A DNA stretch of 64,000 bases. It comes from Podarcis melisellensis (lineage: Eukaryota). Shown here in pieces: positions 3,082-61,464 of the stretch. The notes beneath the pieces are model-generated. The model was not told where the DNA came from. It was given only the letters and a program-made list of their open reading frames with translations, and did no database searches. Where the stretch lies: the NCBI GenBank assembly GCA_964234715.1, contig OZ174280.1. One strand, 5' to 3'. Position 1 is the first letter of the stretch. Each line of letters opens with the position of its first letter. The translations under genes were made by a program, and so were the position numbers.

Positions 3082-3441
3082 AAAAAAAAAAGGTAAGGAC
3101 CCCTGACAGTTAAGTCCAGTCATGAACGACTCTGGAGTTACGGCACTCAGCTTTCTTTACTGGCCGAGGGAGCCGACGTTTGTCCACAGACAGTTTTTCC
3201 GGGTCATGTGGCCAGCATGACTAGGCAAAACCAGAGCAGCGCACAGAAATGCTGTTTACCTTCCCACCAGAGCAGTACCTATTTATCTACTTGCATTTTG
3301 ACGTGCTTTCGAACTGCTAGGTTGGCAGGAGCAGGGACCGAGCAACAGGAGCTCACCCCGTCACGGGGATTCGAACCGTCAACCTTCCGATTGGCAAGCC
3401 CTGGGCTCAGTGGTTTAGACCACAGTGCCACCCGCATCCCT
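3082..3441 (-). mobile_element. Sauria SINE, full length
   Basis: tRNA-derived head GGGATGCGGGTGGCACTGTGG on - strand, ACCTTT tail, 13-bp TSD tcatcaaatgtaa (3069-3081 / 3442-3454). Confidence 0.95.
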
Positions 3442-10063: not shown

Positions 10064-10425
10064 GGGACGCGGGTGGCGCTGTGGGTTAAAGCCTCAGCGC
10101 CTAGGGCTTGCCGATCGAAAGGTCGGCGGTTCGAATCCCCGCGGCGGGGTGCGCTCCCGCTGCTCGGTCCCAGCGCCTGCCAACCTAGCAGTTCGAAAGC
10201 ACCCTCGGGTGCAAGTAGATAAATAGGGACCGCTTTCTAGCGGGAAGGTAAACGGCGTTTCCGTGTGCAGCTCTGGCTCACCAGAGCAGCGATGTCACAC
10301 TGGCCACGTGACCCGGAAGTGTCTTCGGACAGCGCTGGCCCCTGGCCTCTTGAGTGAGATGGGCGCACAACCCCAGAGTCTGGCAAGACTGGCCCGTACG
10401 GGCAGGGGTACCTTTACCTTTACCT
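10064..10425 (+). mobile_element. Sauria SINE, full length, young CpG-rich subfamily
   Basis: GGGACGCGGGTGGCGCTG head, ACCTTTACCTTTACCT tail, 13-bp TSD tatgtgaataaga (10050-10062 / 10426-10438). Confidence 0.95.
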
Positions 10426-19754: not shown

Positions 19755-19970
19755 AGTTACAGGTAGGTAGCCATGTTGGTCTGCCGTAGTCGAAACAAAA
19801 TAAAAAAATTCCTTCCAGTAGCACCTTAGAGACCAACTACGTTTGTTATTGGTAGGAGCTTTCGTGTGCATGCAAACTTCTTCAGATACCTTCATGTGCA
19901 TGCACATGAAAGCTCATACCAATAACAAACTTAGTTGGTCTCTAAAATGCTACTGGAAGGATTTTTTTAA
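19755..19970. mobile_element. Penelope-like element pseudo-LTR pair in inverted arrangement
   Basis: About 70-bp inverted arms 19802-19874 / 19897-19967; same sequence flanks the GIY-YIG remnant at 57805-58402. Confidence 0.85.
19852..19889 (-). ncRNA. Minimal type I hammerhead ribozyme motif, degenerate
   Basis: - strand GTAT-CTGAAGA-A-GTTTGC-AT-GCACAC-GAAA-GC-TC-CTAC; one mismatch in stem II and one in stem I. Confidence 0.65.
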
Positions 19971-20867: not shown

Positions 20868-21635
20868 ATAATATTTTTTTATTTATACCCCGCCCTTCCT
20901 GGTTCAGAAAACTGGGCTTAGGGCAGCTAACAGCAAATTTAAAACACTTAATTGTAGAAGCAGCATAAAATACAGTGTAAAAACTGTAAAATTCAAAGTT
21001 CAGATATCAATTTGGGGGAAATCCATCTAATAAGCATTAGATAGTCACCAGGGCTAGCTGGCTGAATTAGTCCTACTTGGGCCAGCGAGGAGGCCAGGGG
21101 AGAATTAGCTGTGGGGTCCCAGAGCGGGTGATCTTCATAAAAGGGGAGGGGGAGGGAGAGAAGGGAAATAAAAGATCAGGCTGAATTCAAATTAAAGGCC
21201 AGGCAGAATAGCTCCATCTTACAGGCCCGGCAGAAGGAGGTTAAATCCTGCAGGGCCCAAGTCTCATGGGACAGAGCATTCCACCAGGTTGGAGTCATCA
21301 CTGAAAAGGCCCTGGCCCTGGTGGAGGATAGTCTGACTTCCTTAGGGCCCGGGACCTCTGAACTATGGTTATTTATGGACCTTAGGGTCCTCTGCGGGGC
21401 ATACCAGCAGAAGCGGTCCCGTAAATACGAGGGCCCTAAGCCACAAAGGGCTTTAAAAGTCAAAACCAGCACCTTGAACCTGACCCTATACTCCACTGGG
21501 AGCCAGTGCAACTGGTAAAGCACTGGGTGAATATGCTCCCATGGCAGAGACCCCGTGAGGAGCCTCGCTGCAGCATGCTGCACCCGCTGGAGTTAGTGGG
21601 ACAGTTTCAAGGGCAGCCCCGCGTAGAGCAATCAA
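20868..21635 (-). mobile_element. L2 LINE 3' fragment
   Basis: ORF 21176-21583 QHAAARLLTGSLPWEHIHPVLYQLHWLPVEYRVRFKVLVLTFKAL; same subfamily as 24602-25560. Confidence 0.92.
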
Positions 21636-24601: not shown

Positions 24602-25560
24602 TGCTTGGAACCTGTGGCTAGATGGTTTCATGGGAGCCGATTGAAACTAAATCCTTCGAAGACAGAGGTCCTATGGCTAGGTTGGGATGGCATGGGGATG
24701 AGAGACCAACTCCCTTCTCTTGCGGGGGCCCAATTAGTGCCATTGCCTTCCGTTAAGAGTTTGGGTGTAATCCTTGACGCTTCCCTTTCCATGGAGGCGC
24801 AAGTTACAGCAACAGCCAAGGCGACATTTTTCCACCTTCGCCGCATCAAGCAGTTGGTCCCTTACCTTTCCCGTCCCGACCTGGCCACAGTGATCCAAGC
24901 GACGGTCACCTCCAGGCTTGAATACTGTAATTCGCTCTACGCGGGGCTGCCCTTGAAACTGACCCAGAAACTCCAGCGGGTGCAGAATGCTGCAGCGAGG
25001 CTCCTCACGGGGTCTCTGCCATGGGAGCATCTTCACCCAGTGCTTTTCAAACTGCACTGGCTCCCGGTGGAGTACAGGGTCAGATTTAAGGCGCTGCTTT
25101 AAAGACGCTGCTTTAAAGCCCCACAGAGAGCCTCAAGGTCCATAAATAGCAACACCCTAGTGGTCCCAGGCCCTAAGGAAGTCAGATTGGCTTCAACCAG
25201 AGCCAGGGCCTTTTCAGCACTGGCTCCGGCCTGGTGGAACGCTCTGCCCCATGAGACCAGGGCCCTGCAGGATCTGATTTCTTTCCGCAGGGCCTGTAAG
25301 ACAGAGTTGTTCCGCCTGGCCTTTGGCTTGGAGCCAATTTGATTACCTCCCTCTCTCTCTCTTTTTTCTTACCTTCTCCTCCTGCGTTGAGGCTACATTT
25401 TATTTTAATGTTGTAATATTTTAATGTTGTATTTTAATTTTGTTTTTAAGTTGTAATCATTCAACTTGTTTTTATTTTGCTTGTAAGCCGCTCTGAGCCC
25501 GGCCTTGGCTGGGGAGGGCGGGGTATAAATAAAAATATATTATTATTATTATTATTATTA
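24602..25560 (+). mobile_element. L2 LINE 3' fragment
   Basis: ORF 24605-25102 RLKLNPSKTEVL...VKSLGVILD...TSRLEYCNSLYAGLP...LHWLPVEYR; (ATT)n tail. Confidence 0.93.
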
Positions 25561-30000: not shown

Positions 30001-31262
30001 AGGGGTCATAGGATGCAGCAGATCTCCACCCTCTGCAGGCAGAGAGGGAGATCCACAGGTGCAGCAACACGTCCGCCCATTGGCACATCCTCCTTGTAGC
30101 CACTGACACCTCCACAGTCTTCCATTCTCCTCCACTGGTGCCCCAGGAGGTATTCCATGAACATTGGGAGAGTAGATCAGGGGAGGCTTTGGATTCCTGT
30201 TTCCTCAATACTTAAGGGGCGAAGCCTCACCAGCTGCTGATCAAAGCCATCAAAATGCTGTCTTTGCAGAGTTTTTAGTACTTTAGTCTCTGTTCCCACA
30301 GCCTCCCTCCCCACACCTAAAAAAAATAGCCTTGCCAGCCACTGCAGAGACAGTTAATACAAAAAAGACAGTGAAGAAGGAGAATCTAGTGGCTGCCGAG
30401 GGGTGGGGTGAATCAACCGTCGGCCACCTCATGTGTAAAGTAAGTTCATCCGACCCCTCTCCCGAATTTCTCAGATACTTGCCTACCTATCCTTCCGCCT
30501 CACGAAAGTAAACACCCCAATCTAGAACCCACCTCAGAAAGGGAGTGGTCGTCCCATTAAAAAGTGCTGGGAAGTTTGGTCCACTGCAAGCACAGTTCAA
30601 GCCAAGTCAGGATTGTACATGCATGTGAGAGGACCCAAACAGTGATTTTGCCGCATGTCCTGATCATTAGGCACAGTTCTGGGTTTTAGCTGCATTTCTC
30701 CGCACATTCTTAGAAACAAAACAGTCAGCCCAATGGCTTTAAGGGGCTTTTTCTGAGCAAGTCACAGGGAGGGGTCAGTAGTGTGACATACGAAGGACTC
30801 TGGCAACTGAGAGCCTCCTGGGGATGGTCTAATTTGCGACAGTGGTTGGAAAAGCTTAATCCCTTTAAATTTCTCTTTATTGATTGGGGATTTGCGGCTA
30901 AATCACTCGCTATAGAAATGCATTTGCTCCCTCATTCAGAGTGCATTAACAGGCCAGAGAAGGAAGGGTAGGCTAGGCTCCTCCGGGAGTGTGATTGTGC
31001 GACATTGGCCAGAGCAGGGAGGGGGCTGGCTTGAGTCCTTGAGAATGCAGAGCCTGAGGAAATTCCAAGGGACACCAGAGCAACCTGACAAGATTTAGAA
31101 GGGCTTGAGAGCAGGCCTTGAATGCGCCATTTGCCAGAATAGGATTCAATTTCTCCTGCAGCTCAGAATTGGGTGGTTCAAGGGGCTTATGGCTGTGACT
31201 TCAGCTAAGGAAGGTGCAAAAGCAGACGCTTCCCTGGTCCCAATTCCCCTCACTGTATATAG

Positions 31263-31530
31263 GTAAAGGAAGCCCTGACCGCTAGGTCCAGTCACGGACG
31301 ACTCTGGGGTTGCGGCGCTCATCTCGCTTTACTGGCCAAGGGAGCCGGTGTTTGTCCGCAGACAGTTTTTCCAGGTCATGTGGCCAGCATGACTAAGCCG
31401 CTTCTGGCGAACCAGAGCAGCGCACGGAAACACCGTTTACCTTCCCGCTGGAGCGGTACCTATTTATCTACTTGCACTTTGACGTGCTTTCGAACTGCTA
31501 GGTGGGCAGGAGCAAGGACTGAACAATGGG
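31263..31530 (-). mobile_element. Sauria SINE, 5' truncated
   Basis: 11-bp TSD actgtatatag (31252-31262 / 31531-31541). Confidence 0.93.
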
Positions 31531-32237
31531 ACTGTATATAGAAGGAGCATAACTGGGGTTCCTAAAGGAGCACCATTTTTGGGTGTCATCTTAGGAAGAG
31601 GGGCATCAAAGATCACATTACTTAAGTAACATTACTTGATAAATTGATAAATTCAGCTAAATAAGCAAAACAGTTTTGAAGAATACTTTGTATTTAGATT
31701 AGGGTGGGGATCCTGTGCTCCTTCAGCTGTTGCTGGACTGCAACTCCCATCCCTCCTGACTCCTGGTGATGCTGGCTGGGGCTGATGGGAACTGGAGTAG
31801 GCCATAGGTTTCCCACCCGTTTTAGATTGTGACTTCTACAATGCACCAATGTATCATCTTAGAACAGGCATTCCTTTGTGCTGGAGGGAGAAAGGGGAAT
31901 TCCTCTTAAGATGGTGATTGCCGTTAACAGTTTTTATAAGTTTCTTATAACGGGTTTGCTTTTTAATAGATAAAAAACCCACTACCTGATGAAGCAGGAC
32001 ACCATTTTGGATGCTTAAAAGGTTGTGTGTGTGTTTTAATTGCTTGATTTAACCAATATTGATTTAACCCTATTTAAAAGTGCATAACTTTCAAAAGATT
32101 ATTAGGAAACTGTCTTACCTCAAATCAGACCATTGGCCCATCCAGCCCAATTCTGCCAACCCTCGACAGCACCTCTCCAGGGCTTCAGGCTGGAATTTCT
32201 GCCAGCCCTGCCTTCAGTTTTCAGGGACCGACTATGG

Positions 32238-34658: not shown

Positions 34659-35324
34659 GGGATGCGGGTGGCGCTGTGGGTTAAACCACAGCCTAGGACT
34701 TGTTGATCAGAAGGTCGGTGGTTCGAATCCCCACGAGTGAGCTGCCGTTGCTCGGTCCCTGCTCCTGCCAACCTAGCAGTTTGAAAGCACGTCAAAGTGC
34801 ATGTAGATAAATAGGTACCGCTCTGCTTCAGTGCTGAAGCTGACTGACTATGCAGAATTGGACAGATTAACCAGAAAAATTAGATATCTTCAAGACCAAA
34901 AGTTCATCGAGGACTGGGGGAAATTTGTTGAATATCTGAAAAGAATATGTGATGTGCAAACAACACTGGTGGGATTTCAAGAAGCACTGTGAAAACAGAG
35001 ATATATTGTTAAAAAACAAATAGGAGTGGGAGGGAAGTTTAATGGCAATATAAACAGAGAAATGCGTAAACTGAGAAGAAATTATGGATGATTGTCAGAG
35101 AAGCCGAAGGAAGTCTAAAAAGTATCAAATTTGTGAAAAATTTGTGAAAAATTGGCATAATTGTATTTTTGTGTTGGAAAATAATAAAAATTATTCAAAA
35201 AAAAAATAGGTACCGCTCTGGCGGGAAGGTAAACAGCGGCTCCCTTGGCCAATAAAGCGAGATGAGCACCGCAACCCCAGAGTCAGTCACAACTGGACCT
35301 AATGGTCAGGGGTCCCTTTACCTT
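34659..35324 (+). mobile_element. Sauria SINE split by an L1 insertion
   Basis: 13-bp TSD tacaaggctgcat (34645-34657 / 35325-35337). Confidence 0.93.
34826..35203 (+). mobile_element. L1-clade LINE 3' end
   Basis: Open frame KLTDYAELDRLTRKIRYLQDQKFIEDWGKFVEYLKRIC...* to 34992, 3' UTR, AATAAA and poly(A), 17-bp TSD aaataggtaccgctctg (34809-34825 / 35204-35220). Confidence 0.85.
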
Positions 35325-36006
35325 TACAAGGCTGCATGGTTTTCCTTTTGGGAGAGGAAGAGGCATGCAAAATAAGACTTTGTCATCTCTAAGCATTTCA
35401 CCATCCTTAAAAGCCTACTGTTTCCTTGGTCTTGCTTCAAGTGTACCTGGGTGCGGGGGGGGGGGGGGAGAACTTTTTGTTTGCTACTCTTAGCTTCCCA
35501 TCTCAACTCTTTCGGAATTTCTGCTTTCCTGACATTTGGTGACCAGCCCTCCCTCCCACATACTATTATTACTATAACCAGGCTCACATTTTTCTTTCTC
35601 TTTTGACACTTTCTTGTGATGTTGCCTTTTGTAGCTCCACCTTAAGGAATGCCTATCCACCTCAGTCTCCTTACCCCATTAGTAGTACCTCTAGCCTTGG
35701 AACTCTGCCTAGCGCTTCCCTGAACACAGCCATTATTATTTTTCTGTCTTTGCAAAAACGAAAATAAAAAATAGACCTGCTCCACGCACAGCAAGCTTTC
35801 TTATTGTTCTGGATAGTGCCCTTGGACTATAAACATATATGTTATGTCACCAGCAAGTGCCAACCGGAGGCAGGGGTGTTTTGTACTCCCATTTCTCAGC
35901 TGTAAACAGCAAGCTGGCACTGATCTGATCACTAAAAAACAGTTAGAGCTGCCAGGTCGCCAGTATCCCACAGATGAATCTTGTGGTGTTACAAGCCAGA
36001 GTCCGG

Positions 36007-36038
<32 letters not shown>
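36007..36038. repeat. (GATT)n microsatellite
   Basis: Direct reading. Confidence 0.95.
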
Positions 36039-36039
<1 letters not shown>

Positions 36040-37067
36040 CATTTCCCAAACCAAGAAAGGACAGGCAGAGGCGACAACCTCCCTTCCAGCCAAGACTAAG
36101 GCTTACCCAATGCCCAACTGGACAAAGTTGTGAGGCAGGCGAAAAGCAATGGTTGATGCCAATTTGCCAAGTAGAAGAAAATCGTGCCCGGCCCCAAATA
36201 CAGCAGCCAGGAGACCAACTCCTAGGGGTGGTGGGGTCTTCAGCACGCTCAGTGTTGGCTGGCAGGGGGCTGGACCCCTCAATGTTGAGGGAGCAGAGGA
36301 GACCGAGCATGGCATGGTTCAATGGCAGACTCCTCCTGAACATGAGAAAGGAAGCAGTGCTACACTGGGTTCCCCACTCGTCCTCCTCCCAACTGTGCGA
36401 CATCATGTGTGTGTTGTGTGTCATGCATATGACGTCACACTGGTGCATCGCACATATGATGCCGCACACATGCCTGATGGATGTAGGCTTTCTTACTGGT
36501 GGCACTGGTGGCACTCCTTGCTGAAATTCTAGAATCCCCATCTCTATTGGCACTCTGCTGGCTTTAGAAGAGGCATCTGCTTAGACAGACATTCCCACGA
36601 TCTCTTGACCTGACTCTCCTGTTTTAATGGGATTTTTATTGCATATTTTAATCATAGAAGTTTACATTTTAATGGGACTGTTTTATTTAGTTTTTTAATT
36701 ATGGTGTCTTTTTAATTATGCTGAATTTTAGCAATGCCGTGGAACCAGGTTTTTATGTTTTGAAAACTGCTTAGACATAGTCTTGGCATCAAGCAGTAAA
36801 TAAACAAATAAACAATTTTAAAATCTGATAGGCTTGATAGGCTTGGAGAATTGCCCAGCAGTAAAGGGTTAGGGGAGGAGCTAGTGGTAAAGAGGAGGGG
36901 CTGGAGATGTAAAGGTTCAGTACAAGGTGAGGGTGGGGGGCATGCAGGAAAAACAAGTGTTTCAAAAACATGGGGAAGAATGTGTCCATTTTTCCAGTGG
37001 GTGGGGGATATTTTATTTTAAAAGATTTTAAAAGCAGTGTTTAAAATAAAGTTGTTCCTGGAAGTTA

Positions 37068-37326
37068 AAGGTAAAGGGACCCCTGAGTCCAGTCGCGGAT
37101 GACTCTGGGGTTGCAGCGCTCATCTTGCTTTACTGGCTGAGGGAGCCAGCATTTGTCTGCAGACAGTTTTTCCGGGTCATGTGGACAGCATGACTAAGCC
37201 GCTTCTGATGAACCAGAGCAGTGCACGGAAACGCCGTTTACCTTCCCGCCGGAGCAGTACCTATTTATCTACTTGCACTTTGACATGCTTTTGAACTGCT
37301 AGGTTGGCAGGAGCAGGGACTGAGCA
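37068..37326 (-). mobile_element. Sauria SINE, 5' truncated
   Basis: 8-bp TSD ggaagtta (37060-37067 / 37327-37334). Confidence 0.93.
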
Positions 37327-39958
37327 GGAAGTTAGATCAGATCCTGATCAAGGGTGAGAAAATGCCAAAAGACCTAAGGGAAGAGAGAAACCCCACTGGA
37401 AAAGAAAATTAGCCTGGGCAGTGGAATTTTCAATCCAATTCAAACAAGCTGCAGTGTATGTTAATATCAGCAAAGTTCTATAGTGCTTGTTGAGTGTTCA
37501 AATCTCCAAAGATATCATCTCAGCAATCTCACCACAACCTTCAATAGTGGGTTGCGGATGGGTTGCGAGGCTGAGACTAGCCTGCCTAAGACTACCTGAT
37601 GAGTATATAGCAGAGGGGTTAACTGGAAAAGTTGAAAATAAACTTTACATCTTAGTTTGTTGGCCACTGCTCTCCATTAGCTAACTTTGGAAAGCAAAAT
37701 CTTATGAAAGGTAGAGTTTACTGTGGTGTTTAAGGTGGCTATATCTGGGTACATGACAGTTCAGGGCTTGTGCATATATCTTCCTTTCCCCCAGCCTGTC
37801 TTTCCAGAAGAAGTATGGTCTGTGTACTCCTTGTTGACCCACCGGGGAATAAATTGCTTCCACCGATGGACTTTCTTCCCATTAATCTCCCACAGTTGTA
37901 GCAAACACCTGAATTCTTCTATATCAGCCACGGGCATTTTACTGCTCAACCCTCTTTAGGGAAAGAGCATGAGCTGTGAGACTTCAATCCTCACATCCCA
38001 GGTTGCACTCAAGGGCAATAAATGGTGGTGGTGTGAAGAGAAAATCTGAGCCATTATTGATCCCCCCAGAGGAAAATATCTGCCACTCCTGAGTATTTGC
38101 TTTCATGCGATCAATGAAAATGTCCTTATCAGGAAAACATGTCTGACCCGGACAAGCATTTTGTCATGTAAACAAACTGGGAGATGGGAGGGCAGAGTGT
38201 GGAAAGCAGAACTGGGAGAGATAAGGAGGGAGACAACGTAAAGCAATGTGGTGGAGGAGGACAGTACAAGGGAGAGGTGGCAGTGGGAGAGAAAAAGCCA
38301 AGGAGGGCAGAGGAGATGGAGAGAGAGCGGAAATGGAGAAAAGAATAGCTGCAAATTGTGAATTGTAATTGAGTGCATAGTGCCATCCATATTACAGCAA
38401 CCTCAGCTGTTTTGGATTTCACAACTGCTTCTCCAAGTGCAATGCTCTGCTTTTTTGAATGACAACCATTTTCTTGTGTGACAAAAGCAAAGGAGTGTCA
38501 TCAGGGGGAACTATTGGTGACCTTCCTTGGTGACCTTGGGGTCTGGGATGTGGGGAAGGGTCTGCCTCCCCCACCCCTGTTGGTTTTGCCATTGAGGATT
38601 AAGCCAGCTTCCATTTGCATAGGCCCACACCTTCACCTGCACAATTCCACCCTGGATCCCATTTCACACTTCAGGGAGACAGAGGTGGAAGGTGGGCACT
38701 GGGTTTTTAGTAGGATTCTTTGACAACAGCTCCAGGGAGGCTAAGTTCAAGGGAGTCTGGTTAAGGCTGTAAGGCTAGTCACATTTACTTGGAAGTAAGT
38801 CTTCTTGAACGCCATCAGATTTACTTCCATTAGCTTGTAAGACACATTTTCCTTAGTAAGGGGAAAAAATATGGGTAATGTCCCGGGGGGCAAAGGAGGA
38901 GGAGAAACAGGTGCAGTTTCAGCAACTTAATCACAGCAGACAGTTCTCCTATATGCTGCTCTACAGGAGCAAAAAGAGAGGGAGATACAGCGCTTAGGTG
39001 TTTAGCTAACAGGGCATTATTGATGTTTTCATTGTTTAAGTAGAGATGCAATTCGTCTCCCCTGACTCCTCTGCACCTTTCTGAGTGCGAAATGGCTGCT
39101 CGCTGACCACTAAAACATTTGAGGATTATTTACCTCCCAGGCCCCCCCACTTCTTTTCCTCCTTACTGTAAGCAGCTGGAATCTGAACCAACCTTACTAG
39201 CAGTGAAATAAGCAGCTTTTCCACCCCTCATTCCAGAGAGATGCCCACAATCTAATTTTGTGATCGCAATCAATTTCACAAGGAAATGTCATTTACGTAG
39301 AATTGTGTATATTGTACAAGGCTATCACACTTTATTCTGAATTAGCTTTCTGCAGAATTTGTAACTGTGTATGGTAAAAGCCAGCAAGACGGCATAGACT
39401 GAGAAACACGAGAGGCGGAGGCCAGGAGGAGTGATTAACAGAGAGCCATACAGGGCTTAGAAACTCTGCTCTCTGAACACTTGGCATTTTGCAGACGTTT
39501 CCCAGCTGTATCTTCAAAACTCCAAGGGACAGAACCCCACTTTCTTTTTCTAAAAAATGAAATGTGATCTAAAAAACAAATAAATTCCAGGCATTAAAAT
39601 TCTACATGTGGCACCAGGTATCCTGTAGAATTCAGTAGTACAGAATCAATATTAGAAAACAGGTATTCTGTAAAGGTAGGCCAAGAACCTCTGGTTTCCT
39701 GACTCGATGAAGACCACACCTGTCATTCAGGATCCTGAAGTTCTAGAACAATAGCTGAATGTTAGTAGCAAGCAATTAGGTATCAAGTTCCATATACTAA
39801 GCCCACAACTTATGTGGGGGTTATGTTCCGGGGTTGTGCCTAAAGCTCCCTCAAATATACTCCAGAGAGTTGTAAGAACCCTATAATAGGTTTAGAAGTC
39901 ACACGGGGAAAGAGGAGGAGGATAAAAGTGATTTTGCTGATGGGACACTTTATTTAGT

Positions 39959-40715
39959 GTTGTTGTTGTTGTTGTTTAGTCATTTAGTCGTGTCCAACTC
40001 TTTGTGACCCCATGGACCAGAGCACGCCAGGCACTCCTGTCTTTCACTGCCTCCCGCAATTTGGTCAAACTCATGTTTGTAGCTTTGACAACACTATCCA
40101 ACCATCTCATCCTCTATCGTCCCCTTCTCCTTGTGCCCTGAATCTTTCCCAGCATTAGGGTCTTTTCCAGGGAGTCTTCTCTTCTCATGAGGTGGCCAAA
40201 GTATTGGCACCTCAGCTTCAGGATCTGTCCTTCCAGTGAGCACTCAGGGCTGATTTCCTTCAGAATGGAGAGGTTTGATCTTCTTGCAGTCTCAAGAGTC
40301 TCCTCCAGCACCATAATTCAAACACATCAATACTTCAGTGATCAGCCTTCTTTATGGTCCAGCTCTGACTTCCATGCATCACTACTGGGAAAACCATAGC
40401 TTTAACCATATGGACCTTTGTTGGCAAGGTGATGTCTCTGCTTTTTAAGATGCTGTCTAGGTTTGTCATTGCTTTTGTCCCAAGAAGCAGGCGTCTTTTA
40501 ATTTCGTGACTGCTGTCAACATCTGCAGTGATCATGGAGCCCAAGAAAGTAAAATCTCTCACTGCCTCCATTTCATCCCCTTCTACTTGCCAGGAGGTGA
40601 TAGGCCCAGTGGCCATGATCTTCGTTTTTTTGATGTTGAGCTTCAGACCATATTTTGCACTCTCCTCTTTCGCCCTCATCAAGAGGTTCTTTAATTCCTC
40701 CTCCCTTTCTGCCAT
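39959..40715 (-). mobile_element. RTE-BovB LINE 3' fragment
   Basis: MAEREEELKNLLMRAKEESAKYGLKLNIKKTKIMATGPITSW...; ILKEISPECSLEGQILKLR; (CAA)n tail; probable TSD atttagt. Confidence 0.95.
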
Positions 40716-41394: not shown

Positions 41395-41753
41395 GGGATG
41401 CAGGTGGCGCTGTGGGTTAAAGCCTCAGCGCCTAGGACTTGCCGATCGAAAGGTCGGCGGTTCGAATCCCTGTGGTGGGGTGCGCTCCCGCTGCTCGGTC
41501 CCAGCGCCTGCCAACCTAGCAGTTCGAAAGCACCTCCGGGTGCAAGTAGATAAATAGGGACCGCTTACCAGCGGGAAGGTAAACGGCGTTTCCGTGTGCG
41601 GCTCTGGCTCGCCAGAGCAGCGATGTCACGCTGGCCACGTGACCCGGAAGTGTCTCCGGACAGCGCTGGCCCCTGGCCTCTTAAGTGAGATGGGCGCACA
41701 ACCCCAGAGTCTGTCAAGACTGGCCCGTACGGGCAGGGGTACCTTTACCTTTA
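41395..41753 (+). mobile_element. Sauria SINE, full length, same young subfamily as 10064
   Basis: Diagnostic aaagcctcagcgcctagg and ggcccgtacgggcaggggtacc. Confidence 0.95.
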
Positions 41754-42001
41754 GGGATCAGCAAACTTTTGCAGCAGGGGGCCGGTCCACTGTCCCTCAG
41801 ACCTTGTGGGGGGCTGGACTACATTTTGGAAGAAAAAAATGAACAAATTCCTATGGCCGCAAATAACCCAGAGATGCATTGTAAATAAAAGGACACATTC
41901 TACTCATGTAAAAACACGCTGATTCCCGGACCATCCACAGGCTGGATTTAGAAGGTGATTGGGCTGGATCCAGCCCCCAGGCCTTAGTTTGCCTACCCAT
42001 G
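41752..42001. mobile_element. hAT (Charlie-group) MITE with a SINE inserted in its left TIR
   Basis: Reverse complement of 62359-62612; 8-bp TSD aggaagag at 41385-41392 and 42002-42009 brackets SINE plus MITE. Confidence 0.88.
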
Positions 42002-42627: not shown

Positions 42628-42878
42628 GAAGAAGAAGAGGAGGAGTTTGGATTTGATATCCTGCCTTTCACTCCCTTTAAGGAGTCTCAAAGCGGCTAAC
42701 ATTCTGCTTTCCCTTCCTCCTCTACAAACACTCTGTGAGATTAGTGAGGCTGAGAGACTTCAAGATGTGTGACTAGCCCAAGGTCACCCAGCAGCTGCAG
42801 GTGGAGGAGCGGAGATGTGAACCCGGTTCCCCAGATTATGAGACTGCCGCTCTTAACCACTACACCACACTGGCTCTC
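42628..42878 (-). mobile_element. Squam3-like tRNA/CORE SINE
   Basis: GAGAGCCAGTGTGGTGTAGTGGTTAAGAGC head on - strand, (CTT)n tail, TSD gcatta. Confidence 0.88.
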
Positions 42879-43164: not shown

Positions 43165-43470
43165 CTCCATCAACTGTCTGGGGTTCACAGCCATCTGGAT
43201 CCTCCTCTCCTCCCAAAAAGTGTTCTTCTACATGGTGAAACTCTCTGTCACATGAGGCAGTGATGGCCACCAAGTTGAATGGCTTTAAAACAGGGTTAGA
43301 AAAAAATAATGGAGGACTACTAGTCACAGAGGCTATATTCTACCTCCACCATCGAAGGCTGTATTCTTCTGCATGTCAGTTGCTGTTAGACCAGGGGAGA
43401 GAGGAGCGGAAGAGTGCTGTTGTACTCAGGTATTGCAGGACCAGGCATCAGCTTGTAGGACCAGGCATCA
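43165..43470 (+). mobile_element. Old CR1 3' fragment
   Basis: gtgatggccaccaagttgaatggctttaaaacagggttaga..., related to 46165-46430 and 54635-55070. Confidence 0.7.
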
Positions 43471-43501
43471 GGTTCTCTTTCCCCAACCCATGCAAATAAG
43501 A

Positions 43502-43745
43502 AGAAGAGTTTGGATTTGATATCCCGCTTTATCACTACTTGAAGGAGTCTCAAAGCAGCCAACAATCTCCTTTCCCTTCCTCCCCCACAACAAACACTCT
43601 GTGAGGTGAGTCGGGCTGAGAGACTTCAGAGAAGTGTGACTAGCCCAAGGTCACCCAGCAGCTGCATGTGGAGGAGTGGGGAAGCGAACCCGGTTCACCA
43701 GATTATGAGACTACTGCTCTTAACCACTACTCCACACTGGCTCTC
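43502..43745 (-). mobile_element. Squam3-like SINE inserted near the 3' end of element A
   Basis: Same family as 42628-42878; TSD taaga. Confidence 0.88.
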
Positions 43746-44048
43746 TAAGAGACCAATGAGGCTGGTTTTTGGGTCAAAACAGGCCACAACTTTATTGAAT
43801 ACAGATGAAAGAGGTTTGGCTTGAGCATGGTCAATCCAGGCGGGGGTTCCTAAGACTTACCTCAAATAGGGTGACCCTCGCAAGGACCACTGTCTGGGGG
43901 AGTGCCTTTGGCCCTGGGCACGCAGACATGGCCACTCCCTCCGGATCCCTTTAACGGGATACCCCAGAGTTTGGAGGGGCTGGGGAGACTACAACCTCCC
44001 CTCCATCCAAAACAAAGGATTTCCCCAATGCCCAACCAGTTGTGACGA

Positions 44049-44150
44049 TTGCTATGAGGTAGGCAAAACCACCGGGTGAGAGCCAATTAGCCCAGTGGAC
44101 AAATTCCTACCTGGCCCCATAAAGAACGGCGACCACCTTAGCCACAGCAA
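44049..44150 (-). ncRNA. Structured cis-RNA module with U-rich internal loop (ENE-like), copy A
   Basis: TTGCTGTG/CATAGCAA, GGTC(G)CCGT/ATGGGGCC, AGGTAGG/CCTACCT and CCACTGGG/CCCGGTGG helices; loop AATTTGT / TTTTG. Confidence 0.5.
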
Positions 44151-44940
44151 AGTCATTGACTATAAGCTTAAACTGAGGGTGGGTGGGTGAGTGGGGGAAA
44201 CCCGGCGAAGGAACCAACAGGTAGTGCCCCAGGTGTGGGCTGCTTAAATGGGCAAGGGCTGGATCCAAGGGAAGCCTACCTGCTCTGTTGGCTCAGCCCA
44301 AGTCCCCATTAGCCAAAGCTGAGTGCAGGACAGGATCCAGTTCCTGGTAGGTGGAGGGGGCTTAAGCCCCCACCGTCTATCAGGAAGGGCACCGCTGTTC
44401 CAGTTCCCTCCTCGGGGCCCCGGTGAAGCCTTAGCCGTCTTGCAATGCTGTGGCACCAAAAGGTGTGAGCGAACATATGAGCAGGATGAGCCCATGGCCT
44501 AATCCAGCAGTCCCTCCCTAAGTGCCTGTGCCACCTGGACATTTGGGTAACTTTAGGAATAATTACTGCCTGGATTTGCTTGTTTACTCCCCCTCTTTCC
44601 CACTTCTTCATTGTGTTGGTTAGATTGACAGCCTGCACTCAACAGGGCCTTAAAAAAAATCTCTGCACAGCCAAGGTTTACCAGCAGGCAAATGTTAGGC
44701 ACTTTATCAATAATAATAATAATAATAATAATGAGAAAACTCTGTAAACTAGGTCCTTGCTATTAACCCTTGACTGCAGATGAGAGATTGAGGCTGGCCG
44801 AGATGGCTTGCCATGTACTGAGTTCATAGCACAGGTGAAATTCATAGCTCAGCACCAAAGCCCCTTCCACAGCTTTCCTCCAAGTGCTCACTGAGCAGGT
44901 ACAGGGAGGAGTGCAACTTCACCCTCCTAACCTCTGCATT

Positions 44941-46164: not shown

Positions 46165-46430
46165 GGGGACATGACATAAGTTTATAAAACTATGCATGGC
46201 ATCAGGGAAATGGATACAGATTTCTCTCTCTCCCTCTCTCTTAACGCCCAGAGATTGTGGACATCCAGTGAAGCTGAAGGTTGGAAGATTCTGGATAAAT
46301 AAAAACACAGCACATAGTTAAACTGTGTTGACCACCAATTTGGATGGCTTTAAGAGAGGATTAGATAAATTCATGGAAGAGAGGGCTATTGGTGGCTGCT
46401 AGCTATGACTGCTGTGCTCAGCCTCACTGT
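46165..46430 (+). mobile_element. Old CR1 3' fragment
   Basis: ggggacatga...tttataaaactatgcatgg...ggatggctttaagagaggattagataaattcatgga. Confidence 0.75.
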
Positions 46431-46872: not shown

Positions 46873-47237
46873 AAGGTAAAGGTAAAGGTACCCCTGACCG
46901 TTAGGTCCGGTCGTGGACAACTCTGGGTTTGCACACACATCTCGCTCTATAGGCCGAGGGAGCCGGCGTTTGTCCACAGACAGCTTCCGGGTCATGTGGC
47001 CAGCATGACTAAGCCGCTTCTGCAAAACCAGAGCAGCACACGGAAACACCATTTACCTTACCGCCGGAACGGTACCTATTTATCTACTTGCACTTTGATG
47101 TGATTTTGAACTGCTAGGTGGGCAGGAGTTGGGACCGAACAACGGGAGCTCACTCCGTTGCAGGGATTCGAACTGCCGACATTCCAATCGGTAAGCCCTA
47201 GGCTCTGTGGTTTAGACTACAGCACCACCTGCGTCTC
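46873..47237 (-). mobile_element. Sauria SINE, full length
   Basis: 13-bp TSD agctaaagtggta (46860-46872 / 47238-47250). Confidence 0.95.
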
Positions 47238-48014: not shown

Positions 48015-48360
48015 GGTAAAGGTAAAGGACCCCTGATAGTTAAGTCCAGTCGCATACGACTCTGAGGTTGCAGCGCTCATCTCACTTTACAGGCCGCGAG
48101 GGAGCCGGTGTTTGTCCGCAGACAGTTTTTCCAGGTCATGTGGCCCGCATGACTAAGCCGCTTCTGGTGAAACCAGAGCAGTCCACAGAACCGCAGTTCA
48201 CCATCCCTATTTATCTACTTGCACTTGATGTGCTTTTGAACTGCTAGGTGGGCAGGAGCAGGGACCGAACAATGGGAGCTCATCCCGTTATGGGGATTCG
48301 AACCGTTGACCTTTCGATTGGCAAGCCCTAGGCTCCGTGGTTTAGGCCACCTGCATCCTC
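48015..48360 (-). mobile_element. Sauria SINE, near full length
   Basis: TSD ccacaaact (48006-48014 / 48361-48369). Confidence 0.93.
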
Positions 48361-51300
48361 CCACAAACTACTACTATAATAGACATGGCACAAAAGGAAA
48401 TGGAAATAGAAGAAGAAAGAAAGAAAGCAAATCCAGGCACCAAGTCTTAAAGTTACAACATGTCAGCTGTGTGAACAGTTTGGCATGGATGAGCTTCTCT
48501 AATGTTAAAGGCACGCATACATACAACCCAGCAGCTATCAGTGAGTCCCTGCCTTGTGATAGAGGCCAGAGTGCTCTTCATTTTAACTCTGCCGTCTCAG
48601 GGCAACATTACTTCTAAAAACAAAACATTGGCTGTGGTGGTGTGGAGCTTTTAAAACTTTGCTGAGAATGCTCATGCTGCTACCCACCCACTCCCCACAC
48701 AGAGACACCCAGCTTTGATATCTGAAATGGCACCCCCAGCTGGGGATGCAACCAGGGATCGGAATTCAGCGCTCGAACCGATGTTCCACCTGAGCACCCT
48801 TCACATCCATCACTGTCAGATGTTACATCTCCGTGGCAATGTTTGCTTTGGAGCTGTCAGCTGGAAGGATCCACACACACACACTGCCAACTTGCACGAC
48901 GTTGCCTCACAAAGGGAGCCATTCTAATGGCAGGATAAATGGGTTCTTAATACAGTGGGGAAGCGTCAGTGCCATTCCTCATTGCTTACAACCTCCAGCC
49001 AGGCCTGGCTCCCGCTTGCTCATCCTTGCTTAATTACACTCTCCTGATATCTTCCTCTGCAGAATCACGAAGCCGACGTGCTTCACGAAGGAACGTGGAT
49101 TTAATTTGCATGAAGGGAAGCAGGGAAGGTTTGGAAGAAAACTTCACTTGCTTTCAAAGGCATAATATGGGCAGACCTGGCTGCAAATGCACTTAAATAA
49201 ATCCGTCAAACAGGCATTGGGTTTCAGCGGAAGACTTGTGGGGAAACCTTAGGAACAATGGGGTCCTAGAATAAGTGGGGTGGAGAAAGGGGGGGCAAGT
49301 CAGAGTGTGCAGTGAGCATCCCCACCAAATTTCGAATGGTGCTCCAATTTAGCATGATCAGACTGAACCATGCAAATTAAGACCATTTGCATATGCATTT
49401 ACATTGCTTCCCCTAGAAATGGATGGTAGACAAGGAGTTGTAATTAATATAGCACATTTCAAGTGCTCAAAGCACTTCACATTAATTATCTCAGCAATCC
49501 TGAGAAAGGCCCTGCAAGGCAGGGCGGTATAATTATCTTCCTCCCATAGCATATGGGGAGTGAAGTCTGAGAGCACGGTGCCTTGCCTAAGGGCCAAAGA
49601 GGGCAGAATGCAGGAAAGCCGCCAGGATAGGAGATCCCCTGGTGTCTTGCTTTGTTTAATTAGACAGCCATGTGCAGGGGTTTGGGTGTGGGGAGGGAGA
49701 CTTGGATCAGAGCTTCTCTCTCTGCTTGAAAGTCCTCACCTGCCATATAGGGATAATAATGTTGAGCCACCTTACAGAGTTGTTGTACTTTTATTATCCT
49801 GTAATCCTTACAACAGTGGTGCTTTTTACTGTGGACACCTTCCTTCTGTTGTGTTCCAGTGCCAAGACCTGTTCTTCCCATCCTTATTTGCCTAGACCCA
49901 AAGGCTTATTTTGTGCAGCCTGATTTTAAAGGAAAGGTGTCTTTCTGCTAGGGTCATGCCCTAAGCAGTTTTACTAGTTTATTAAAAGCCTTTTAAAATC
50001 TCCCCTTACTTTCTTTGGATCTTAGTCCAAACCAGAACCAGAACCTCAAAGTTCAACAAGTGTTTTGCCCAGGCAGGTGCTGCCAAATTCTCCTCAAACT
50101 TCACTTCAGGCCAGGCAGCACAGATATTGTGACCCACCATGACAAATACAACCTAGAAGGGTCCCCTTGTTGCAGAGATGTTTCTAAGAGTGGTCCGATG
50201 GGGTGCAGGCTGAGCCCCAAAATGTTTTGTAAGCATGCCAAATGTTTCTGGTGGGTAATGAATTCAGGAGAATCTGAATTGGATTACTGGGTGGGTTATT
50301 TGGGGAAATAATTTAAGGTGACTTCAGTTTGAGATTATTTGGGGGCAAGTGAGGGGGAACTGAAGGTACAGCCGACTTGCAATTTTATGTTCCAGGGATA
50401 GCATGTAAAGCACAAATCATGTATATTCAAAACACATTGGGTTCAATGGCAGGTGGAATTGCCAAAGCCTTTTCTCTCCTTTCCACCCCCTTAATTTTAT
50501 TTTTCAAATGTGTAAAGCTAGGCTTGCCATAGCAGGAATACTGCAGAAATCGTAAAAATGTTTGGAAAGATCCAGACATATGTCAACCCATGTTGGCACT
50601 CTCCTTAGTTGTTGTTGTTGTTGTTGTTGTTGTGTGTATGCAGCTTAAGGCTACCTTGTGAGTTCATGGCTGCTGAAACGTCAAAGAAAGTGGGTATTTT
50701 CATCCTTGCTTGCCCTAACCACACAAATGATCACCAAATAAACTTTCCCAGGGGTCTTATCTGCAAGTTCCTTCACATTCCATTGTTCTAGGCCTGTTGC
50801 TTCTCATATGGAAAAAAGCCTGTGTCAGATAAAACCTTTACATGAAGGATGGAAACCAAGCCACTTATATTGAGAACACTATTGAGAACAAACCTAACAC
50901 AGGTTAGGCATGAGATAAGCTCACCAGAAATCAATATTTTCAATTGCTCCTAGGTCTAGTCTCTCTAGAGGTCCCCAGTTTTGGGTAAAAACCTGGACTG
51001 GAGCTGCTCCTGACTGTGGTGAATTGGAACTCATGAAACACAGGCTGAATTCCCTAATGGTACACCCTGGTCTTTGCACATAAATGAATATGCAATATCA
51101 AGAATGCCTAAGGTTTGAGTTTGAGCTCTTTTGCATCCAAAATGCATCAATCAATAGCAGTTTTGAGGCGTCAACTCAACCTCATTTGGCTCTGTGTCTC
51201 CTACTATCATACAGGCATCAACCTCTGAATATCTTTGCTTTGTAAATGCAGTGTAAGGTTTATTTCACTTCCTTGCCTTTGCAAGTCTGCATAAATCATC

Positions 51301-52049
51301 CTCTATGGCTGTACAACAATGGCTGCATTTACCAGAGGGAGTGAGTCACTAAGACCAGGAAGGGCTCACCAGGGGGCTCAACAAGAACTTGTTTTTACTG
51401 TTGCCTTCCTGATATTATAAAGGTCTTATTATGATCCCAAGAGACCCATGCTCCTTCTGATATGCCTGCGTGACTCACAGCAGGGCCATCGCCTGAAATA
51501 CTGTGAGAGAAGCGGGAGGAGGGTAAGAGGGCAGTGCCTCTGAAAGGAGAGCATTTTAACTGTGGGAAATTGCTTATGTTTTATTGTCTGTGTATTCAAT
51601 ACTTTAATAACATTTTATGAAGTGACTAGTGGCCAGTTCCTTGCCAATCATCCCAGCCCCCTCTGTAGTGGTCCAGAACAGTAAAATTTGGAAATATATG
51701 TGTAAATAAACACCCTTGTCCCTCTTCTTAGCCAACTGGATACACAGGGTGACTATAAATCTAAAAGCAACCACAATAAAGCTAAAAGCACAACTCACGT
51801 GTGCCCCTTGAGAGAGAAACACATAAAATTACCCCACTTTTAGCTTTACACGTGGAGGAAGCCATGGCCCTCTTTTGGACAACTCACATCAGTGAGGTGG
51901 ACAAAAAGATATTTTTACATTTATACCATGCCATGCATGAAGGTATTCAACCTGATCAGGTAGCCTCGGTTAGGCAGACACCCCTTTTCAGATGCCAAGA
52001 GGGATTTTTGGCCCTGCTTCAGGCAAATATTGGTGTCAGTGGAGGGATT

Positions 52050-52920
52050 TTGCGTGGCCAGGTGGAGACCCCCCTGACCCCAGGTGACCCCTCAGGAGGA
52101 ATAATGACTCATGACAACGTGTTATGGGATTAAAATTGGCCACAACTTTATTAAACTTTCAGATGTAGGGAGACCTTGGCTTAGGCATTGGTCGTTCATT
52201 TCTCCCATTCCCCGTCCGGGGATCTGGGGAACATCAGGGTTATCCAAACTGTGTGGGGATTGGGCTGGCATTGGAGAATGTCTCTTCAAGCAGAGAGGCT
52301 GCCCACCCATTTTGACGCAACACAGGGGAGAGCACTGACAACCTAATGGTGTATGGCCAGTGGCTCCCTGCCACATAACCCCTTTAATGGGAGACCCTGG
52401 GATCACTGCCGCAGGGGGAGCGAGGGTCACCATTTCATGCCCCACCCCCACTTTAGGGAAGACAGACTAAAGGATTCTGCCCAAGGCCTGAAAGTTGCGA
52501 CGTTTTTGCTATGGGGAAGGCAAAACCTGCCAATGCAGGGAAATTCCTTCCCACTCCCTCAACAGCAACCATCAATGACCGTAGCAGCACCCACATACCT
52601 GTAAAGAAGGGGTTAACCTGCAAAAGGAAGGTATAAACTGAGGGAGGGCCGAGTGGGAAAAGCTCTGGAGCCGACTGAGGACTCCCAGGTAAGTCCCACC
52701 CTATATTGTGTCTGCAGGGTGGTCCTAACCCTACCTGGTCCATTTCCCTGGCAAAACCTCCCCAGCTGGGATTGGCTAACTGTCTGAGGTTAGGCGGGAA
52801 CCTCCAGGTATCCAGCTTGGGGAGGCAAAGCCAGGCTGAACTGCCAGGTGTCAGGTGGCTGTGCGTGACCCCGCAGAAAGCACACACCCCCATTTGAGGT
52901 GGGGAGCAGTCATTCCACAA
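52050..52920 (-). mobile_element. Element B: LTR-like solo repeat without TSD (possibly DIRS/Ngaro type)
   Basis: - strand starts ttgtggaatgactgct; CCAAT and TATA-like motifs; structured module; AATAAAGTTGTGGCC (AATAAA at 52147-52152); ends ccacgcaa; homologous to element A. Confidence 0.6.
52507..52586 (-). ncRNA. Structured cis-RNA module with U-rich internal loop (ENE-like), copy B
   Basis: TGCTACG/CATAGCA, GGGAAGG/CCTTCCC and CCTGC/GCAGG helices; loop AATTTC / TTTTG. Confidence 0.5.
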
Positions 52921-54634: not shown

Positions 54635-55070
54635 GGAAGAGGTTATAAAATCAGGTATGTTGTGGATAAAGTAGATAGGGAGAAGGTCTTCACCCTCTCA
54701 CATAGCCCTAGAACTCAATTGAGCTAAATGATGAGAGATGCAGCATAGAAAGCAATAGCATCTTGTTAAACTATGGACATTTGCCGCTAGAAGATGCATT
54801 GATGGGCACCAACCTGTATGGCTTTAAAAGGGGATTATACACATTCATGGAAGACAAGAAGGCTATGAATGGCCATTAGCCATGATGGCTATGAACTACA
54901 TCCAACTTCGCAGGAAGGATGCATCTGAATGCCAGTTGCTGAGAAGCACAAGAGGGCAGAGGGCAGTTGGGCTCATGTTGGGCTTGTGGGCTTCCCATAA
55001 GCATCTGGGAGTACATGATGCTGGACGAGATGGGCCTCTGCTCTGGTCAACCAGAGCTCTTCAAGAATGT
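54635..55070 (+). mobile_element. Old CR1 3' fragment
   Basis: gatgggcaccaacctgtatggctttaaaaggggattatacacattcatgga...gatgctggacgagatgggcc...atgttctt. Confidence 0.75.
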
Positions 55071-57804: not shown

Positions 57805-58402
57805 ATATATATAATAATAAAAAGTCCAGTAGCACCTTAGAGACCAACTAAGTTTGTTCATGGTGTAAGCTTTCGTGTGCATGCACACTTCTTCAGATAC
57901 ATTGAAACAGAAGTCACCAGACCCTTATATATAGTGGGAGGGTGGGTTTTTCTCAGGAGGGTAAGAGGAGATGGGTGATTGACTCAATGGGTATGGAGTG
58001 CATGCACATGAAAGCTCATACCAATAACAAACTTAGTTGGTCTCTAAGGTGCTACTGGAAGGATTTTTTTTTATTCTGTTGACAACTGTTAACGACTGCA
58101 ATTAGTCCTACAAGAAAAAGCAAGGGATAGTATGCAGATGATTAGCATATGTAATGAGACAGGAATCCAATATCTTTATTAAGACCAGGTCTCTCCATAG
58201 TTTTCAGTTTAGTGATAAGTTGTAATTCAGGAACTCCAGGACATTCAATACAGGATCTCAAAGCTGTCTTATTACAAAAGAATTTCAGAAACAGACTTGA
58301 AAGAAAAGTTGCATGCACACGAAAGCTTATACCAAGAGCAAACTTTGTTGGTCTCTAAGGTGTTACTGCATCAGACCAACCTGGCTACCTACCTGAATTT
58401 AG
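57805..58402. mobile_element. Rearranged Penelope-like element with GIY-YIG C-terminal remnant and three pseudo-LTR pieces
   Basis: PGHSIQDLKAVLLQKNFRNRLERKVA (+, 58236-58313) and ELQLITKLKTMERPGLNKDIGFLSHYIC* (-, 58228-58142); 18-bp TSD aacaatgagatttctaat (57787-57804 / 58403-58420). Confidence 0.9.
57863..57900 (-). ncRNA. Minimal type I hammerhead ribozyme motif
   Basis: - strand GTAT-CTGAAGA-A-GTGTGC-AT-GCACAC-GAAA-GC-TT-ACAC: intact core, perfect stem II, palindromic stem III AAGCTT, one stem I mismatch. Confidence 0.75.
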
Positions 58403-60578: not shown

Positions 60579-61464
60579 ATAGAATCATAGAATCATAGAG
60601 TTGGAAGAGACCACAAGGGCCATCGAGTCCAACCCCCTGCCAAGCAGGAAACACCATCAGAGCACTCCTGACATATGGTTGTCAAGCCTCTGCTTAAAGA
60701 CCTCCAAAGAAGGAGACTCCACCACACTCCTATAGGTGGAATCTTCTTTCTTGTAGTTTGGATCCATTGCTCCGTGTCCGCTTCTCTGGAGCAGCAGAAA
60801 ACAACCTTTCTCCCTCCTCTATGTGACATCCTTTTATATATTTGAACATGGCTATCATATCACCCCTTAACCTCCTCTTCTCCAGGCTAAACATGCCCAG
60901 CTCCCTTAGCCATTCCTCATAAGGCATCGTTTCCAGGCCTTTGACCATTTTGGTTGCCCTCCTCTGGACACGTTCCAGTTTGTCAGTGTCCTTCTTGAAC
61001 TGTGGTGCCCAGAACTGGACACAGTACTCCAGGTGAGGTCTGACCAGAGCAGAATACAGTGGCACTATTACTTCCCTTGATCTAGATGCTATACTCCTCT
61101 TGATGCAGCCCAGAATTGCATTGGCTTTTTTAGCTGCCGCGTCACACTGTTGGCTCATGTCAAGTTTGTGGTCAACCAAGACTCCTAGATCCTTTTCACA
61201 TGTACTGCTCTCAAGCCAGGTGTCACCCATCTTGTATTTGTGCCTCTCATTTTTTTTTGCCCAAGTGCAATACTTTACATTTCTCCCTGTTAAAATTCAT
61301 CTTGTTTGTTTTGGCCCAGTTCTCTAATCTGTCAAGGTCGTTTTGAAGTGTGATCCTGTCCTCTGGGGTGTTAGCCACCCCTCCCAGTTTGGTGTCATCT
61401 GCAAATTTGATCAGGATGCCCTTGAGTCCATCATCCAAGTCATTGATAAAGATGTTGAATAAGA
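60579..61464 (-). mobile_element. Young CR1 LINE 3' fragment (RT domain C-terminus)
   Basis: IKFADDTKLGG RT motif; ORFs 61247-61438 and 60730-61230 separated by a homopolymer frameshift; (ATTCTATG)n tail. Confidence 0.97.

Follow-up and report, generated by a model that had tools for sequence, protein, structure and literature searches.

The sequence evidence supports a conserved, structured RNA element carried by retroelement-like repeats in the window (the whole 64-kb stretch of DNA that was analyzed). This module is ENE-like in its build. Its architecture and position fit an ENE; given that it failed the tests for five triples, for a dENE, and for a MALAT1-type helix, and that it had no Rfam match, we do not file it as an ENE.

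Copies of the module and their predicted folds

Copies A and B belong to two non-coding repeats that are homologous yet deeply diverged, in each case on the minus strand, and both module strings were found at exactly the minus-strand coordinates claimed in the original prediction. An anchored pattern, AGGAATTT-N8..38-TTTTGCCT, matched twice in the window, at 44061-44108 (A) and 52518-52548 (B), against a chance mean of 0.02 and two matches in 0 of 100 shuffles, figures to be read knowing that the pattern was derived from the predicted finding itself. The modules, their cores, and an A-rich string in B are as follows.

44049-44150, minus strand: whole module of copy A, a three-way junction with P1, P2, P3 with the U-rich loop, and P4
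44057-44112, minus strand: core of copy A, with P3 of 7 bp, a 7x5 loop (3 U / 4 U), and P4 of 8 bp with one bulge
52507-52586, minus strand: module of copy B, with P1 paired at 6 of 7 positions and P2 not conserved (2 of 4)
52514-52552, minus strand: core of copy B, with P3 of 7 bp, a 6x5 loop (3 U / 4 U), P4 of 5 bp, and a tetraloop
52503-52509, minus strand: GCAAAAA right after P3, in B only, which could pair intramolecularly with the 3' strand of the loop

The central helix, P3, had been said to carry two compensatory swaps, and this was borne out: all 7 positions are paired in A and in B, with A-U changed to G-C and U-A changed to A-U. By a simple count, with the arms anchored by shared sequence, the chance of two matched Watson-Crick swaps between A and B is ca. 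0.005. The apical helix also pairs despite divergence, as claimed, the stems of A and B being unrelated in length and sequence and both paired. The AAUUU/UUUUG loop is conserved, with the correction that it is asymmetric, 7x5 in A (AAUUUGU/UUUUG) and 6x5 in B (AAUUUC/UUUUG). Its 5' U-tract is indeed short (3 U in A and B), and the 3 U and 4 U strands are unpaired in the predicted folds of both copies. For ATTGGC, the sequence is conserved but the position is not: in A it lies within the apical loop, whereas in B part of it is in the loop and part in the stem. Together with AA, G, and CATAGCA, it makes up the invariant non-U residues of the module.

In A, P1 has 8 bp and P2 has 4 + 4 bp with a bulged G, and all helices of the module are fully paired (MFE of -41 kcal/mol). 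The outer helix drawn for B was less exact, with 6 of 7 positions paired and one mismatch, and the drawn fold is not the MFE structure (-20.8 versus -26.2 kcal/mol). Over the full length, the fold z score was -2.72 for A and -0.99 for B (26 of 200 shuffles as good), while the cores reached -2.78 in A (0 of 200 shuffles as good) and -2.90 in B (52510-52555; 3 of 200). Inside the whole repeats, with a span limit of 200, P3 pair probabilities ranged from 0.50 to 1.00 in A and from 0.45 to 0.98 in B, and 6 of the 7 P3 pairs of A had a probability of at least 0.99 within the whole element. Since P3 is also foldable on the plus strand (pair probabilities of at least 0.90), folding energy alone cannot fix the strand. 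For copy B, the plus-strand fold is equally good; in copy A, four G-U pairs, some of them perhaps due to CpG decay, favor the sense RNA (-41 versus -27.5 kcal/mol).

A strict scan for hairpins with a U/U loop on both strands of the window, with thresholds set after inspecting 25 loose candidates, gave 3 hits, all in A and B and on the AATAAA strand, compared with a mean of 0.32 in shuffles, 0 of 60 of which reached 3. Repeat B holds a second hairpin of this kind, and repeat A has a hairpin at the equivalent position.

52747-52835, minus strand: another U/U internal-loop hairpin, close to the 5' end of repeat B, with 6 bp, a 3x3 U loop, and 9 bp
44341-44386, minus strand: the corresponding 5' hairpin of A, which lacks a U loop and was seen as a self-inverted BLAST hit

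The second hairpin of B is predicted at -44.2 kcal/mol (z of -4.69; 0 of 200 shuffles), with an equal fold on the plus strand (z of -4.68), and the region around the 5' hairpin of A (44335-44400) had a z of -3.04; the second U loop of B is absent from A. Neither this U-loop hairpin nor the third copy, C, had figured in the original prediction.

36126-36220 (approximate), minus strand: copy C, a decayed module, inside a homologous stretch at 36037-36240, followed by (AATC)n

The stretch around C is homologous to A (nhmmer E value of 1.2e-11) and is without the AATAAA block. P3 of C is paired at 6 of 7 positions. Its C-G pair at P3 position 4 corresponds to U-A in A and to A-U in B, so that three different Watson-Crick pairs occupy this position in the three copies. 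The U-tracts of C are 4 U / 4 U, the apical stem is lost, and the module fold is no longer the MFE structure. The three-way junction (P1, P2, P3) is common to A and C, with the helices of C registered by hand. The loop-closing pair is G-C in all three copies and the next pair is G-C in two of them; the As right after P3 number five in B and two in A and C. The homology of C to A stops at the start of an (AATC)n array (36007-36043; 9 units).

In the alignment of A, B, and C, 20 of 21 helix cells are paired and every slid control was lower; the score was reached by 57 of 500 shuffles in the covariation control, which with n = 3 is not significant. Covariation of P3 across the three copies is suggestive, three sequences being too few for proof. 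No fourth copy was found in the window by profile HMM or covariance model, only A, B, and C being recovered, and the next model match (E value of 0.018) was without the loop.

Host repeats and their neighborhood

The repeats that carry A and B, with their conserved words, are laid out as follows.

43745-44400, minus strand: host repeat A, with an approximate 5' boundary and a 3' end split by a SINE
52040-52862, minus strand: host repeat B, with ends at 52846/52040 (TG..CA, 8-bp flanking repeat) or 52861/52051 (shared 6-mer)
43782-43796, minus strand: poly(A)-signal block of repeat A (AATAAA plus 9 invariant bases)
52138-52152, minus strand: poly(A)-signal block of repeat B, the same 15 nt
44173-44282, minus strand: donor-like (CAG/GTAGG) and acceptor/initiator-like (CTCAG/TTT) words of A, 107 nt apart, upstream of the module
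52638-52737, minus strand: donor-like and acceptor/initiator-like words of B, 97 nt apart

The two repeats are homologous over ca. 540 nt, in islands only (nhmmer E value of 1.9e-15), and the remainder of the 3' end of repeat A probably lies at ca. 43430-43502. The conserved islands are the donor-like word, a pyrimidine tract with the acceptor/initiator-like word, the module, a short palindromic word, and the AATAAA block, whose 15 nt are exact in A and B only. Two flank segments have A-versus-B identities of 40/92 and 82/192, against a random baseline of 0.42, and with flanks at this random level the module stands out as a conserved island; the segment just downstream of it has an identity of 48/75. 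Measured from the outer ends, the distances to AATAAA were 253 nt (A) and 355 nt (B), in agreement with the ca. 250 and ca. 355 nt originally given.

The donor- and acceptor-like words, judged by consensus resemblance alone, enclose 107 and 97 nt and possibly represent a small retained intron, or else promoter words; a second acceptor-like site is present in B near 52618. The module itself sits mid-repeat, ca. 300 nt from the repeat 5' end and 64 to 89 nt after the conserved initiator-like or acceptor-like word; a full-length element would probably carry it in its 5' leader as well.

None of the 112 flanking ORFs matched Gag, RT, YR, or SGNH families, and Pfam searches of all 112 gave only five weak, unrelated hits. 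Among the other ORFs of the window (150 of 158 scanned), there was one weak RVT_1 hit, at 40338-40715. Judged by sequence, A, B, and C derive from one old group of retroelements, as terminal-repeat remnants without protein genes. The lack of such ORFs is to be expected of a solo remnant and speaks neither for nor against an Ngaro-like class. The host family is presumably Ngaro-like (split repeat), with a solo LTR as the alternative class, and there are presumably squamate repeats with this poly(A) block that follow an SGNH-hydrolase ORF. The Ngaro-type reading is plausible in view of the split-direct-repeat (SDR) layout, A1...B1-A2-B2, described in the accessible text of PMC9210276 and of the solo A2+B2 remnants known for VIPER/SIRE from that of PMC6681497. 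As for the ends of a solo LTR of the Gypsy or ERV type, for which TG..CA and a target duplication of 4-6 bp would be expected, B has TG..CA with the 8-bp repeat and boundaries that share three 8-mers, with 27 of 1,000 random windows aligning as well. In the ranges scanned around copy A, no TG..CA pair was accompanied by a duplication. The boundaries of B at 52032-52091 and 52843-52872 (minus strand) are alike, either a target duplication or a look-alike insertion site.

Other repeats share the window. One SINE-like repeat has two minus-strand copies (43503-43744 and ca. 42648-42878; 91% alike over 116 nt), one of which interrupts the 3' end of repeat A. An abundant SINE family is spread over both strands (3088-3438, 10064-10423, 31260-31531, 34691-35327, 37061-37327, 41395-41754, 46873-47235, and 48018-48365). 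Two LINE RT fragments, 21175-21629 and 24934-25343, which we take to be L2-like, lie in inverted orientation about 3.5 kb apart, and further LINE fragments (60582-61296, 40338-40715, 54800-55070, 46326-46420, and 43261-43380) are presumably CR1-like and RTE-like. A hammerhead-like minimal core (CUGAAGA, palindromic helix, GAAA) at 57856-57897 on the minus strand had no Rfam match and a fold not better than shuffles. Pieces related to the repeat that bears it are found at 19803-19968, 57998-58070, and 58309-58381, some in inverted pairs; we assume that repeats with this core are Penelope-like terminal repeats.

Candidate functions of the module

The original prediction proposed an ENE. What stands of it is a conserved structured RNA element of fitting architecture and position: the predicted folds have a two-sided U-rich internal loop, G-C pairs suited to A-minor contacts lie next to that loop, and in A and B the module is on the sense strand upstream of AATAAA. 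The 5' U-tract would allow only three U-A-U triples in A and B (four in C), against five in PAN. By analogy, the module may still work like a minimal ENE, i.e., as a poly(A) clamp, a reading that we hold tentatively, as the likeliest single one though short of probable. The poly(A) tail would fold back into the loop in the element's unspliced transcript, where four As would pair with the 3' UUUU and three 5' Us would bind those As from the major groove, giving three U-A-U triples. Neighboring As would make A-minor contacts with G-C pairs at the top of P3, and an A/G juxtaposition would close the loop. Slower deadenylation would then leave more RNA for retrotransposition. We infer these binding and stability steps by analogy; selection on the RNA module would have acted in active ancestors, not on the present copies, while most other sequence drifted.

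The poly(A) clamp is favored by the changes between A and B, in which helix pairs vary while loop letters stay fixed, by the agreement of a U loop set on G-C pairs with the published ENE description, and by the island character of the module, with strict-scan hits confined to the AATAAA strand of A and B. It is weakened by the 5' side of the loop (only 3 Us, 4 in C, against five PAN triples), by the nonsignificant covariation control, by the Rfam search (0 of 10 weak matches, at E values of up to 5, overlap the modules of A, B, or C), by the mid-repeat position, by the absence from A of the second U loop of B, and by the equally good plus-strand fold of B. Moreover, the invariant AA, G, ATTGGC, and CATAGCA are more than a poly(A) clamp needs.

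Conserved non-U letters favor the main alternative, a protein-binding RNA signal (Gag-like packaging, RT recruitment, or a host export factor, by analogy with psi/CTE-like signals), which we consider possible but on the unlikely side. The loop would then be a structured A-G / A-U / U-U motif read by a protein and not an open clamp. The three-way junction of A and C (hand-registered in C) is consistent with this, although in B just 2 of the 4 P2 positions still pair. The position of the module 64 to 89 nt after the initiator/acceptor-like word would possibly place it in a 5' leader, and the upstream donor/acceptor-like words suggest an intron that genomic RNA must retain, but no protein gene is attached (0 of the 112 ORFs match Gag, RT, YR, or SGNH) and the pattern of Us on both sides recurs in the second hairpin of B.

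We judge it decidedly unlikely that the module has no function and is an old inverted repeat whose covariation arose by chance or was homogenized during replication. The small sample (n = 3), the 57 of 500 shuffles that reach the score, and the fact that C no longer folds in this way would fit; however, two matched Watson-Crick swaps between A and B (rough chance of 0.005) and apical stems that are unrelated yet both paired argue otherwise, and the loop is more conserved than the stems, the opposite of what a simple inverted repeat would show.

Less probable again is that the module guides poly(A)-site choice as an upstream element in a split direct repeat, whereby the first AATAAA (B1) would be read through and the second (B2) used, with the U-rich structure in A2 marking it. 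In both A and B, the module has the same order and strand with respect to the invariant AATAAA block, which agrees with this, as do the SDR layout and the solo A2+B2 remnants described in the accessible texts of PMC9210276 and PMC6681497. However, the SDR identity of the present repeat is itself presumptive and the spacing varies by 100 nt (253 versus 355). A distance of 253 to 355 nt is also far for a typical upstream poly(A) element. The slimmest chance goes to the module acting as folded single-stranded cDNA (in priming, end regeneration, or as a tyrosine-recombinase substrate) and not as RNA: DIRS-1 amplifies via linear single-stranded cDNA (accessible text of PMC7192593), P3 forms on both strands, and the 5' hairpin of B is equally stable on both, but the four G-U pairs of A favor the sense RNA (-41 versus -27.5 kcal/mol) and the module is far from the repeat ends.

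If the poly(A) clamp is real, ENEs would extend to a high-copy vertebrate repeat, with a smaller working loop than in the solved examples. Thousands of natural variants would be at hand for structure-function work, and decayed copies in host 3'UTRs could alter mRNA half-lives. If the module is bound by a protein, it would be a rare defined cis-signal in a retroelement group whose priming, packaging, and 3'-end choice are poorly studied.

We take the long 3'UTRs of some tetrapod CR1 LINEs to resemble the module (P2, P3, U loop, and ATTGG). A portable module, made up of the three-way junction and a short U loop, that acts as a minimal three-triple clamp and is shared by Ngaro-like YR retrotransposons and CR1 LINEs across tetrapods seems to us rather doubtful. 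Ngaro-like elements and CR1 LINEs presumably also share an SGNH esterase domain. The CR1 link, if real, would point to a host-directed accessory role (stability), given that the module would be movable between unrelated elements and that the CR1-like ends in the window do without it. On the shared-clamp reading, the module would be the first ENE-like element of either class and would have passed, as a cis-acting RNA part, between retroelement orders that are not related. Within the window, none of the CR1-like 3' ends matched the module model; two different CR1-like 3'UTR types are present there, both without the module. Copies A, B, and C were themselves rejected as CR1 3' ends, with no ORF2 end upstream and no terminal hairpin plus octamer tail.

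As regards published material, the CR1 alignment in the accessible part of PMC4316615 is trimmed at the ORF2/3'UTR boundary, i.e., the relevant region. The motif in its context was found neither among the matches listed for supplement file 2 of PMC4316615 nor in the supplements of PMC11303007, PMC5786205, PMC4255032, and PMC7561263 (except file 13). The sole match of the genome-contig scan, L001:3403-3472, is antisense in a bacterial ORF (z of -0.69 and -0.16) and was rejected as chance; by eye, this ORF resembles an SGNH-type hydrolase, which is coincidental. A distant BLAST of A versus phages and plasmids gave no match, and spurious frames of B used as protein queries gave 0 of 83 candidates, one tandem-repeat protein that they matched being rejected.

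Comparison with known ENEs and retroelements

The novelty of the module as a vertebrate ENE is smaller than the original prediction implied. According to the accessible text of PMC7583470, MALAT1 and MEN-beta are vertebrate ENEs already in print and >200 ENEs have been predicted, those of stickleback retroviruses included, so the module, if an ENE, would have predecessors among vertebrate retroelements. LTRs can contain ENEs (PMC13541005), and the Evade ENE was proven by melting, reporters, and deletion (PMC12501189), as given in the accessible parts of these papers. No description of the present module was found among the matches listed from the full-text literature, in which the motif turned up in papers on unrelated topics; the 2016 survey of ca. 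200 TE ENEs, Repbase, or Dfam may already contain it.

Ngaro-like SDRs and the SIRE of VIPER, as described in the accessible texts, offer a parallel, in that a solo A+B remnant could account for a repeat of several hundred bases without protein genes. In contrast to Ngaro-like elements, there is no ORF and no full-length copy in the window, and the accessible parts of PMC9210276 and PMC6681497 describe no comparable RNA structure for Ngaro-like SDRs or SIRE.

Like the ENEs and dENEs of transposable elements (Evade/Copia93 and TWIFB1, in the sources as available), the module lies in the non-coding end region of a retroelement. Most plant TE ENEs, in the same sources, have two loops on one hairpin, whereas here there is one U-rich loop per hairpin and no double-domain (dENE) layout in A or B; the second loop of B is a separate hairpin about 200 nt upstream. 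A dENE was thus rejected, the U loops being on separate hairpins with no short intervening duplex in one hairpin.

With MALAT1 and MEN-beta, the module shares a vertebrate setting and a U-rich loop whose 3' strand carries a G; in B, a short A-tract right after P3 could pair with the loop. The repeat differs in having an AATAAA of its own, and in A just two As follow P3. No Rfam match was obtained for a tRNA-like element near the modules, and a MALAT1-like intramolecular triplex was rejected because the A-tract is in B only.

The KSHV PAN ENE has five U-A-U triples and three A-minor contacts (PMC7583470), and the ENE is described as a U-rich internal loop next to G-C pairs (PMC7583470; PMC12501189), in the accessible texts of both. 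The module differs from PAN in that at most three triples would form (four in C), in the conserved A, A, and G of its loop, and in the three-way junction below the loop. It resembles the PAN ENE in its hairpin form, with a U-rich loop that has two sides and rests on G-C pairs, and in its location upstream of a poly(A) signal.
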